Below are positions 11,654 through 15,759 of a DNA stretch of 64,000 nt, piece by piece. The stretch spans positions 288,001 through 352,000 of the forward strand of contig CM000436.1 of assembly GCA_000165345.1 (NCBI GenBank), written 5' to 3'. The notes below the pieces were generated by a model. It was not told the DNA's origin. It did not search any database and saw only the letters and a list, made by a program, of their open reading frames with translations. A program made the translations under genes and the position numbers. Numbering within the stretch: the first letter of the stretch is position 1; every line of letters begins with the position of its first letter.

Positions 11654-12313
11654 ATGAATGGGTTTAGATTGTGTGGTGATATGCTCCACCTTTTGAGCAT
11701 TTTTCTTCTTTTAAAAAAGTTAAGAAAGAGTAAGAGTTGTTTGGGTATTTCATGTAAGATGCAGGAAATCTATTTGATAGTATTTTGTAGTAGATATATT
11801 GATTTATTATGGAGTTTTGTATCAGTATATAATACTTTAATGAAAGTTGTATTTATTGCAAGTACTAGTTATTGTATATATTTAATGAGATATCAAATTC
11901 CAATCAGTAGAACTTACGATTCAAATGCAGATAGTTTTCCATATCATAAATATTTATTATTACCAGCCCTATTATTGGGTTTTATTACTTCTGAAAAATG
12001 GATAGTTTCTGAGATATTATGGAGTTTTTCAATCTGGCTTGAATCTGTTGCAATTTTGCCCCAATTAGTACTTTTACAACAATTAAGAGAAGTAGAAAAT
12101 TTAACATCAAATTATGTTGTAACTATGGGACTTTATAGATTATTTTATATTTTTAACTGGATTTACCGTTTCTATGCTCAACATTATGTAAACTGGGTTG
12201 GCTGGATTGGAGGACTAATTCAAACAGCAATTTATGTGGATTTCTTTTACTATTATGCAATGAGTAAATGGTATGGCCAGAAATTGATACTTCCTTATTC
12301 TATTGAGATTTAG
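11654..12313 (+). CDS. ERD2: ER lumen protein-retaining receptor (KDEL receptor, ERD2)
   Basis: The 219-aa protein begins MNGFRLCGDMLHLLSIFLLLKKLRKSKSCLGISCKMQEIYLIVFCSRYIDL, matching the ERD2 consensus [37 protein letters not shown]...TRYLDLF. It is a seven-TM hydrophobic protein of the right length. Confidence 0.9.
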   Translation: MNGFRLCGDMLHLLSIFLLLKKLRKSKSCLGISCKMQEIYLIVFCSRYIDLLWSFVSVYNTLMKVVFIASTSYCIYLMRYQIPISRTYDSNADSFPYHKYLLLPALLLGFITSEKWIVSEILWSFSIWLESVAILPQLVLLQQLREVENLTSNYVVTMGLYRLFYIFNWIYRFYAQHYVNWVGWIGGLIQTAIYVDFFYYYAMSKWYGQKLILPYSIEI

Positions 12314-12693
12314 TTCATGTAATTATTTATATTTTCTGCAGTATATATTGAATATTGAGTATAAGTAGAATAAATAAGATGAATTTCTAAGGAAGACTTT
12401 CAGATAAGTGAGGGGAGGGGGGAGGGAGGCATCGGAGTGTAGGTCAAATTCACGATCCTCTGCTTTTTTTTTTCTATTTTTTAATATTCTTTCTCTTCCA
12501 ATTAGCATCTAAACTGAGTATAAATTAAGAATCTCATTCTTTTAGTATCAAAAAGAGAAAAAGAAGAAATAAAGGAAGAGAAGTAAAAACATATATTACT
12601 TAGTATTAATTTGGACAAAGTTGAATAAAATAGAGAAAGAATTAGTGACCTATTATTTCATGTTCACTCTAATTAAAAAGTATATTTTCAATA

Positions 12694-13360
12694 TTAAATC
12701 TTTGAGTTTTTGATGATTTGGTCCAACATAAGTTTTTCAGCTATAATAAGTTTTTCTTGTATATATGGAGATCCTCTATATTTTCCACTTGCTTCATTCA
12801 ATTCAAGCATTCTTCTTGCAATCTAAAGAACAATATGAATAATTCAAGTTAGAAATAATGCCAATATATGAAGATACATTTTTTTAAAAATTTCTTTATT
12901 AGTTGAGAAAGATTTGAACCATATTTCAACAGAAATTTGGTTATACAAACTTTCAGAAGAGATTGATATAATGATATTTATTATAAACTACAACACTTAC
13001 CTTTTGTATATCTTCTACAGAATACTTCTTCCCAAATTCGGTACCTAGGATTTTGTTTGCTTCTCCAAGAGTCATTTTACTTCCAAAATTGATAGATCGA
13101 ATTGCTTTAATACCATCTAAATCAATTTTAAAGTTTTAATGATAGAATTATATTTGAATATTTAACAAATTTTAGATAAACAAACCTTTATATGAATCTT
13201 TAAAACATTGCTTTACAACACTTTGTAAGGATCCTGAAGTAATCTTAATTAACTTAGTTATTACTCTGGAAATAGTTATTATTAATTATTATGAGTCAGA
13301 AATTTTGGTAAATTATTCAAGTCAACACATCTTAGCTTACCTTAAAGTCCTCGGAGACAT
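12694..13360 (-). CDS. PAM16: PAM16/TIM16 (Magmas)-like mitochondrial import motor subunit, four exons
   Basis: This gene is not in the ORF track. The minus-strand exons are 13341-13360 (ATG TCT CCG AGG ACT TTA AG|GTAAGC), 13186-13265, 13001-13116 and 12694-12822 (ending at TAA). The three introns are 13266-13340, 13117-13185 and 12823-13000, with donors GTAAGC, GTTTGT and GTAAGT and acceptors CAG, TAG and TAG. The spliced 114-aa product is MSPRTLRVITKLIKITSGSLQSVVKQCFKDSYKDGIKAIRSINFGSKMTLGEANKILGTEFGKKYSVEDIQKIARRMLELNEASGKYRGSPYIQEKLIIAEKLMLDQIIKNSKI. Compare Magmas LAQIIVMGVQVVGRAF...[52 protein letters not shown]. E2F-like (GGCGGGAAA) and GCATGCA sites lie upstream at 13835-13858. Confidence 0.6.
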
Positions 13361-13834
13361 TCTTATTGAAATACCATAAAATTAATAATATGCTTATTTT
13401 TCTATCTTTCCATGTATTTATTAGATTTATATATAATATATATTATATAGCCAAAATGTACTAATATAAGCATTAATTGTTTATATTACCATTTCTTTCT
13501 TAAATAGAAATTCAAAATCCAATAAGAAATAATGCAAAGAAAAGATATAAATTCAATATTAAGAACTGAAATTAATATGAATGAATGTGAAGTAGAAAAA
13601 CTATTATTGTAATCACTTGATAACTTGTATTATTTGTGGGGAAAAGTAAAAAGCTGAAAAATTAAGAAATCTATAATTTATTAACCAATTATTTTATAAA
13701 TGAAATAGACCATTAAAAAAATGAATCTAATTAATGATTTAAATCCTTATTTTATTTCCTTCTTACAATCAAAATTTATTATTAAAATTATAAATGATTA
13801 CCCCCCAACCGCTTTTATAGAAAGAATTTGCGAT

Positions 13835-13858
13835 TTAGGCGGGAAAGATTGCATGCAG
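13835..13858. promoter_or_regulatory. TTAGGCGGGAAAgattGCATGCAG upstream of the PAM16-like gene
   Basis: Lies about 475 nt upstream of the PAM16 ATG (13360, minus) and just 3' of the HBS1-like stop. Confidence 0.45.
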
Positions 13859-13962
13859 AAATGTAGTAGAGAATAACAATAATAACAGTGGTAATAGTAA
13901 TAATAATAATAGTAATAATAATAAAAATAATAATTAATTAATTAATTAAACAATTAAAAAAT

Positions 13963-15555
13963 TTAATGAAAGATCATTTCTCCAATAAGAACGGTGATTC
14001 CAAAAAATCGAACTGAGACTTTACTTAGATTAGTATTATCATTACATGAACATTTATTATATGAAACAATTTCTTTTTCAGTTTCAAAATAAAATATGTC
14101 ATCCCTGACACTAAGTAAAATGGCGGGAGAAGCTTCACAATGGTAATAAATCATAAAAGATTGACCAGGAACATTCCAAAATATATTTTTGGAACTTAAA
14201 AGAATTTCATTCAAGAATTTAAGACATTTTACTTTAAGTTTTGTGGAAATTTGTATTGGATATAAACTTGAAAGTAGAGATGTAATAGGTGTGTTACTAT
14301 TACGTCTTGTATTATTTTTAGAAGAAATAGTTGATACAATAATATTACCAATGCTAGGATGAATATTGCAATTAAATGTTGCAGAAGAGATATAAATGGG
14401 TCCATTACATGTATTGTATGTATGATCATGAATAGAAATAGCTTTACATTTAACAGATTCACTGAAAGGGAGTACATGATAAGATTGACCAACTTTAAGT
14501 TGACCATATTCAATATATAATGATGCTTTAAATTCAGATGAAGATACTGAGATGATTTCTAGAATACATGCAGAAAAAGAAGTAAATTGTTTAGATTCTT
14601 TATGACAATGACATTCAATAGGGCGTGGTATAGATCTTTTTGAACTTTGATTAATGCTTGATAGAATTTCAAACAAACTAGGCCCTTGATACCAAGAAGA
14701 AAGTTCTTTGGGAAAGGTGTTATTTTTATCATTAAGAATATTGACTCCATGATATGCACTTATTGGTAAAAAAATAATATTTGAATCATTTTTAATATCA
14801 GCAAGTTCTAAATTTATATAATTACTTATTGTATTAACAATATTTGAATAAACTTGTTCATCCCAATTACATAGATCCAATTTATTAACAGCAAAAATAA
14901 TATTCGATACATCTGCTAGAAGTGAATAAATAATATGTTCAATAGTTTGGCCTTTTTGAAATCCTGAATCAAATCCTGAGCTATCAATAACTACAATAAT
15001 ATTATCAGAAAACATTGATATTGAAAAGCTGTTAGGTATAAATTCAGAATGTCCTGGTGCATCCAATATTGTAACAAGTTTTTTTTCAATCATCATACTT
15101 TTAGCTGATATATTGATTGTAATTCCTCTTTCCCTTTCATCATCACAATCATCAAATATCCAAGCATATGCAAAAGATCCTTTTCCAATGATCTCACTTT
15201 CTTTCTTGTACTTTCTCATCACTCCCTCACTAATTAGTCCCAAACTCACAAATAAATGACCCATCAAAGTTGATTTACCAGAATCAACATGGCCTAACAC
15301 TACACAGCTGTAATTATCTATTGTAGGTGTTGATATTATTTCATTTTTCATCTGAATTTTTACTCCTTTATCCTGATTTTGTTTAGCCACATGTTTTTTA
15401 TCTGTTTGTACTGTAGGTTTTGTCTTTACTGTTTTTGTTATTGTTTCTCTTTCATATGCCACATTATCATCATCATCTGAATAGTAATCAGAGTCATAGG
15501 CATCATAATAATCATCATCTGTCAATTCCACATACTTTGATCGTGTACGTGCCAT
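13963..15555 (-). CDS. HBS1/eRF3-family translational GTPase (EF1-alpha-like) with an acidic Tyr-rich N-terminal extension
   Basis: The track ORF starts at GTG 15561; the first ATG is at 15553-15555 (MARTRSKYVEL). G1 GHVDSGKSTLMGHL, G3 ILDAPGHSEF and G4 AVNKLD motifs are present in EF1A-family spacing. A length of about 530 aa, the N-terminal extension and the divergent C-terminal beta-barrel region fit HBS1/Ski7 or eRF3 rather than EF1A itself. Confidence 0.75.
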   Translation of the reverse strand: MARTRSKYVELTDDDYYDAYDSDYYSDDDDNVAYERETITKTVKTKPTVQTDKKHVAKQNQDKGVKIQMKNEIISTPTIDNYSCVVLGHVDSGKSTLMGHLFVSLGLISEGVMRKYKKESEIIGKGSFAYAWIFDDCDDERERGITINISAKSMMIEKKLVTILDAPGHSEFIPNSFSISMFSDNIIVVIDSSGFDSGFQKGQTIEHIIYSLLADVSNIIFAVNKLDLCNWDEQVYSNIVNTISNYINLELADIKNDSNIIFLPISAYHGVNILNDKNNTFPKELSSWYQGPSLFEILSSINQSSKRSIPRPIECHCHKESKQFTSFSACILEIISVSSSEFKASLYIEYGQLKVGQSYHVLPFSESVKCKAISIHDHTYNTCNGPIYISSATFNCNIHPSIGNIIVSTISSKNNTRRNSNTPITSLLSSLYPIQISTKLKVKCLKFLNEILLSSKNIFWNVPGQSFMIYYHCEASPAILLSVRDDIFYFETEKEIVSYNKCSCNDNTNLSKVSVRFFGITVLIGEMIFH

Positions 15556-15759
15556 TGTCACCTATTGACAGTTTCTTCAACTAATAATAATAATAAACAG
15601 ATAATTATGTTGCTCTGGTTTTGTTATAGATTTGTATTATTCTATATTTCATTCACCCTTTCTTCTTTTTTTACTGATTTTTATTCCACACTTTTATCTT
15701 GTTTTCTTTTTTTACCTTTAATAACGTAATTATAATAAATATATTATTTTAAACAAATG

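Follow-up and report, generated by a model that had tools for sequence, protein, structure and literature searches.

The window analysed here is a stretch of 64,000 nucleotides (nt) from chromosome 8 of Cryptosporidium parvum (contig CM000436.1, positions 288,001 to 352,000 of the forward strand). It contains a gap of 1.65 kb between a KDEL-receptor gene (11654..12313, plus strand) and a GTPase gene (13963..15561, minus strand). An earlier note on this DNA had proposed that the gap holds a four-exon minus-strand gene for a protein of the PAM16/TIM16 (Magmas) type and that it merely looks empty to open reading frame (ORF) calling. A track built on ORFs alone is indeed blank between the two neighbours, because stops interrupt all three minus-strand frames in the region. 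The longest ORF, with 40 amino acids (aa; 12953..13075), is exon 3 read from Met48 onwards and continued, unspliced, into intron 3. Assembly of the exons and direct reading of the minus strand of 12300..13900 gave the following gene model:

13341..13360, minus strand: exon 1, 20 nt; the ATG, codons 2-6 and bases 1-2 (AG) of codon 7
13266..13340, minus strand: intron 1, 75 nt; donor GTAAGC, acceptor CAG
13186..13265, minus strand: exon 2, 80 nt; N-terminal segment (residues 7-33), conserved among Pam16 proteins
13117..13185, minus strand: intron 2, 69 nt; donor GTTTGT, acceptor TAG
13001..13116, minus strand: exon 3, 116 nt; linker and start of the J-like domain, from Met48 (ATG 13075..13073)
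12823..13000, minus strand: intron 3, 178 nt, the longest of the three; donor GTAAGT, acceptor TAG
12694..12822, minus strand: exon 4, 129 nt including the TAA stop (12696..12694); remainder of the J-like domain, carrying N81 and the motif G89-S-P-Y-I-Q

Every exon coordinate given in the earlier note was recovered on re-assembly, as were its intron lengths, donors and YAG acceptors. Joined through the three GT..AG introns, the exons form a coding sequence (CDS) of 345 nt with consistent phases and an intact frame, encoding 114 aa followed by TAA; the same model is found in current public annotations. Intron 1 divides codon 7 (AG/A, Arg), and the corresponding residue, invariant in the alignment with alveolate Pam16 proteins, is therefore made only by splicing.

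The gene was compared with loci from C. ubiquitum (L001), the chipmunk genotype I (L002), two Logan assemblies (L003 and L004), C. canis (L005), C. felis (L008), together with a far more distant lineage that was seen twice (L006/L007), making eight loci from seven other lineages. Wherever a locus is long enough to include its neighbours, the gene sits between the same GTPase and KDEL-receptor genes. A free splice-model search, which considered all ATG/GT/AG combinations near tblastn anchors and scored them solely by how closely the product resembled the protein of C. parvum, recovered exactly the four-exon model in C. parvum and exons of 20(23)/80/116/129(132) nt with GT..AG introns in all eight other loci. 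Each of these has the ATG, the short first exon (20 nt, or 23 nt in L006/L007) and a GT donor; exons 2 and 3 have an identical length in every lineage. The introns retain their GT..AG borders and range from 66 to 108 nt (intron 1), from 50 to 126 nt (intron 2) and from 52 to 178 nt (intron 3). They are also far less conserved in sequence, the identity of intron 1 to the other loci being 0.32-0.71 versus 0.59-0.87 for the CDS. The alignments of the six closer lineages are free of exon indels, and most of the differences from C. parvum are third-position changes (for codon positions 1/2/3, e.g., 19/13/63, 23/22/60 and 22/21/60). The reading frame is under purifying selection across the genus, and the GT..AG borders, the phases and the conserved positions of introns that drift in sequence and length mark a nuclear gene with spliceosomal introns.

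The relationship of the product to Pam16 emerges from profile searches. A profile built from Cryptosporidium sequences only, run against 1.84 billion representative proteins, returned 21 matches at E≤1e-3. Apart from Cryptosporidium fragments and two repeat-protein artefacts, the near-full-length matches have E-values from 2e-8 to 8e-4. When ten such matches were scanned with Pfam, six passed the Pam16 cut-off (34-45 bits versus 30.3), two fell just under it and two gave no match. The artefacts, P0029 (3,004 aa, 14 matched stretches, E 7e-19) and P0039 (845 aa, 7 stretches, E 7e-6), were rejected as false positives. Both are repeat proteins, the former with many copies of a short 'DANKILGTD' motif, and they score highly because repeated weak matches sum, which can mimic homology.

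An independent hidden Markov model (HMM) was built solely from twelve non-Cryptosporidium Pam16 proteins. Ten of the twelve were scanned here, eight of them passing the Pfam cut-off, and the remaining two carry a precomputed PF03656 annotation. This HMM, whose members were picked through the Cryptosporidium profile and are thus the Pam16 proteins most like the query, gives the spliced product 73.5 bits (E 1.8e-21), compared with 7.6 bits for the best of 5,000 shuffles. Among 2,329 six-frame fragments of the window, it ranks those of exon 4 (36.5 bits, E 4e-10), exon 3 (17.5 bits) and exon 2 (5.3 bits) first, second and third. A comparison of the Cryptosporidium alignment with the same twelve proteins by hhalign returned a probability of 98.8% and an E-value of 1.1e-16 over 103 of the 114 columns. 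Against the yeast Tim14-Tim16 crystal structure, a combined profile matched Tim16 (2guz_B) at E 2.5e-7 and Tim14 nearly equally, at 5.9e-7.

Two parts can be distinguished in the product: a Pam16-type N-terminal segment (residues 1 to about 40) and a three-helix J-like domain (residues 48-114). Residues 7-40 align with the Pam16 N-terminus, including the invariant Arg7, with a shifted composition and in a region modelled at a predicted local distance difference test score (pLDDT) below 50. In yeast, the N-terminal segment of Pam16 mediates association with the translocase. For the C-terminal part, the predicted model points to a three-helix J-like fold nearest Tim16, which superposes with 2guz_B at 2.0 Å over 64 of its 65 residues (30% identity). 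All residues that are invariant across alveolate Pam16 are kept (R7, M48, E52, A53, L57, N81, G89-S-P-Y92 and A100). The stretch N81-E-A-S lines up with N-H-P-D in Tim14 and with N-D-K-E in yeast Tim16, and the HPD motif is degenerate in all Cryptosporidium orthologues, as in a J-like protein and not as in a true Pam18/Tim14. A degenerate HPD motif is the mark of J-like proteins, which are unable to stimulate Hsp70. In the alignment, Ile93 of GSPYIQ matches the Leu of GSFYLQ in 2guz_B, the position of yeast Leu97, and is a conservative replacement. According to a figure legend in PMC3044749, which cites D'Silva et al. 2008, yeast Leu97 contacts Pam18.

Several results weigh against a Pam16 assignment. 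The earlier note had proposed the Pam16 profile (PF03656) as a check on the conceptual 114-aa protein, and here its expectation failed: the C. parvum protein drew no Pfam match at a limit as lax as E≤10, and two orthologues reached only sub-threshold scores of 16.6 and 18.7 bits (gathering score 30.3). A search of the PDB with the single C. parvum sequence found nothing meaningful, and with the Cryptosporidium-only profile Tim16 appeared just at E 0.34, third after two chance matches. Foldseek with the whole predicted model likewise returned nothing significant, and the N-terminal 45 residues were modelled with low confidence (pLDDT <50). Because every more sensitive method agrees on Pam16, the Pfam miss reflects the limited reach of that model, which is too narrow for the divergent Cryptosporidium lineage, and it is not evidence against homology. 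The PAM16/TIM16 identity that the earlier note had assigned is thus borne out by four independent lines, namely sequence profiles, profile-profile comparison, predicted structure and motifs. We put the probability that the locus is the C. parvum PAM16/TIM16 (Magmas) orthologue, a real, spliced four-exon gene on chromosome 8, at about 0.92.

Neither the gene model nor the protein is new to the databases. An exact-sequence look-up found the identical 114-aa protein under QOY39862.1 (CPATCC_003916, 'hypothetical protein'), WRK33858.1 and other accessions; the neighbouring KDEL receptor is likewise a deposited C. parvum protein. The introns of the CPATCC annotation are 100% supported by RNA sequencing (RNA-seq), according to its authors (PMC8744675). 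The 90% cluster of the protein comprises C. parvum, C. hominis, C. tyzzeri, C. meleagridis and one Cryptosporidium sp. isolate, and several of its members bear locus tags ending in '_8g1115', which fits a later insertion of the gene between two older gene numbers. No 2004-era accession occurs in this cluster, as would be expected if the first annotation had missed the gene; the KDEL receptor does have one (EAK89671.1). The description of the gene as hidden consequently holds for ORF tracks and probably for the 2004 annotation, but no longer today, the gene having since been annotated. Its naming is less satisfactory. The main C. parvum and C. hominis records read 'hypothetical' or 'uncharacterized', and records linked to C. 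parvum, C. tyzzeri (TRY50112.1) and C. meleagridis (KAK9170789.1) are misnamed 'ER lumen protein-retaining receptor', which is the name of the adjacent gene. Some deposited models are shortened to 67, 99 or 103 aa. In the chipmunk genotype I, the orthologue already bears the Magmas/PAM16 name, in the form 'mitochondria-associated granulocyte macrophage CSF signaling molecule'. A literature search on the locus tag cgd8_1115 found no paper. The gene model is thus already public and its interpretation correct, and the locus is not a discovery.

The most sceptical view of the locus would be that there is no gene at all and that short open segments in AT-rich intergenic DNA, flanked by GT and AG, happen to form a chain. 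Short exons, the frequency of both dinucleotides and the lack of any ORF longer than 40 aa on this strand of the region would suit such an accident. The comparative data refute it: seven other lineages share the exon lengths and phases while their introns drift, and substitutions lie mostly at third positions. The score of the spliced product on the independent Pam16 HMM lies far outside the range of its shuffles (at most 7.6 bits), and the identical model stands in curated annotations built with RNA-seq (PMC8744675). The four-exon PAM16 gene is real, far beyond chance. Granting a gene, its product might still be the active motor J-protein Pam18/Tim14 instead of the J-like regulator Pam16. This proposal is close to refuted, for the protein has E-A-S where Tim14 has H-P-D after Asn81, which makes it a J-like member and not a J-protein. 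Residues 7-40 match the Pam16-specific N-terminus, and direct reading of the protein reveals no hydrophobic run of transmembrane length.

Another possibility is that a descendant of Pam16 has been re-purposed in the reduced organelle: it might operate independently of Pam18, or away from the mitosome, serving as a general J-like adaptor. The protein has diverged so far that it falls below the Pfam Pam16 model, and the presequence import pathway of C. parvum has lost its receptors (Fukasawa et al., PMC5455965), both of which would be compatible with a change of role. We nevertheless consider it very unlikely, since the protein retains all the residues invariant in alveolate Pam16, carries the conservative Ile93 at the yeast Leu97 position and has been under purifying selection across the genus, and since mtHsp70, Mge1 and Tim44 have been reported for C. 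parvum (PMC5747110). An orthologue that retains the role of Pam16 in the import motor therefore remains the preferred reading.

For such an orthologue, a mechanism can be sketched by analogy with the motor of yeast, as summarised in PMC3044749, PMC5455965 and PMC3097184. The J-like domain of Pam16 would pair with the J-type domain of the true J-protein Pam18/Tim14. Through Tim44, Pam16 would hold Pam18 at the matrix face of the TIM23 translocase, and it would restrain the stimulation by Pam18 of the ATPase of mitochondrial Hsp70 (mtHsp70). ATP-driven pulling would then be coupled to the precursor in the channel, and precursors would be drawn into the mitosome matrix. We infer that the transcript is spliced in vivo as modelled and that the product resides in the mitosome and binds Pam18, Tim44 and Hsp70. 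The import-motor partners mtHsp70, Mge1 and Tim44 are reported to exist in C. parvum, as they are listed for this species, together with Pam16, in PMC5747110, which draws on earlier reviews. A Pam18 gene would lie outside the window.

Intron 3 measures 141-178 nt in C. parvum and five other lineages, which makes it two to three times longer there than in C. felis and L006/L007, where it has 52-65 nt. In the four closest species, about 70 nt at its 5' end (about 12915..12985) show pairwise identities of 0.73-0.88; for comparison, third codon positions reach 0.78 and introns 1 and 2 about 0.62. The block is thus conserved about as well as synonymous sites, close to the neutral expectation. The short introns of C. 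felis and L006/L007 lack it, and in C. canis it did not align. It could be argued that so small a gene, in an intron-poor genome, has kept its three introns for a function and that intron 3 hosts a clade-specific small RNA or regulatory element, because it is long in six lineages, its 5' block is conserved and intron-encoded non-coding RNAs (ncRNAs) are known in C. parvum, a small-RNA survey having listed 23 (PMC9465071). We regard this as unlikely. A small nucleolar RNA or other ncRNA in the intron was considered and rejected: the Rfam C/D-box match lies on the opposite (plus) strand, at 12895..12968, and is sub-threshold (21.5 bits versus a gathering score of 49; E 1.2), inspection by eye gave no convincing C and D boxes on either strand of intron 3, and the conservation and distribution of the block described above count against it as well. 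In the whole 64-kb window, Rfam found no family at gathering score.

Some short motifs were seen in the flanks of the gene. In the 3' untranslated region (UTR), the motif TAATTAGAGTGAACATGAAATAATAGGTCACTAAT (TAATTAGAGTGA..ATGAAAT; 12630..12675, minus strand) begins 19 nt past the stop and is conserved in five lineages; C. ubiquitum and the chipmunk genotype I have it nearly unchanged, and it can still be recognised in L003 and L004. A hairpin suspected in it by eye was discarded, as no consensus structure was obtained and folding z-scores were near 0. A further short motif (13361..13380, minus strand, and the corresponding position in L001-L004 and L008) precedes the ATG, in most lineages by about 10 nt. 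Its form is TGGTATTTC in C. parvum, against GAG(G/A)TATTTC in the majority of lineages, and it may be a sign of the transcription start or of the 5' UTR. Farther upstream, some 480 nt before the start codon and roughly 110 nt beyond the GTPase stop, TGCATGCA and TTTCCCGCC lie adjacent to each other (13838..13857, minus strand). The latter resembles an E2F-type site, and the two might be candidate promoter elements of the PAM16 gene.

PAM16 is a core component of the motor that pulls proteins into mitochondria, so that its presence speaks, with modest weight, for an Hsp70-driven import step of the conventional kind in the Cryptosporidium mitosome. The practical use of the result lies in annotation clean-up: a functional name can be given, wrong receptor labels and shortened models can be corrected, and a Pfam model that misses the genus can be noted. 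The case also illustrates that raw sequence can suffice for a correct reading of short genes with several exons, and it opens no new question.

Compared with yeast Tim16/Pam16 (2GUZ chain B) and mammalian PAM16/Magmas, the C. parvum protein has the same succession of N-terminal segment, linker and three-helix J-like domain, and shares the motifs (M/I)TLxE(A/S)xKIL and GS(P/F)Y(I/L)Q as well as a degenerate HPD. It differs from them in being shorter (114 aa), in lacking the C-terminal tail and in its richness in lysine and isoleucine, which fits a genome of 28% GC. Its organelle is a mitosome and not a respiring mitochondrion, and, unlike these homologues, it is without a Pfam match. Alveolate Pam16 proteins, two of them from Perkinsus, align with it over columns 7-110 at 23-30% identity and have the same invariant residues; they mostly pass the Pfam Pam16 cut-off. 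Their N-termini are Ala/Gly-rich (MAxGPLxRIxAQ...), whereas the Cryptosporidium counterpart, MSPRTLRVITKLIKITSGS, keeps the hydrophobic pattern with a shifted composition. In being highly divergent and hard to find by sequence search, the protein resembles the mitosomal Pam16 of Giardia intestinalis (GL50803_19230; Jedelsky et al. 2011, PMC3044749), whose mitosome retains Pam16 along with Pam18 and mtHsp70 (PMC3044749). Organelle proteomics revealed the Giardia protein, and its location was established by experiment (PMC3044749), while that of Cryptosporidium is known from sequence and modelling alone. Finally, Pam18/Tim14 (2GUZ chain A; mammalian DNAJC19) possesses an HPD motif and a transmembrane anchor, neither of which is present in the C. 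parvum protein, but the two have in common a J-type fold and a similar GSP(F/Y) motif, and Pam18 is the presumed binding partner.
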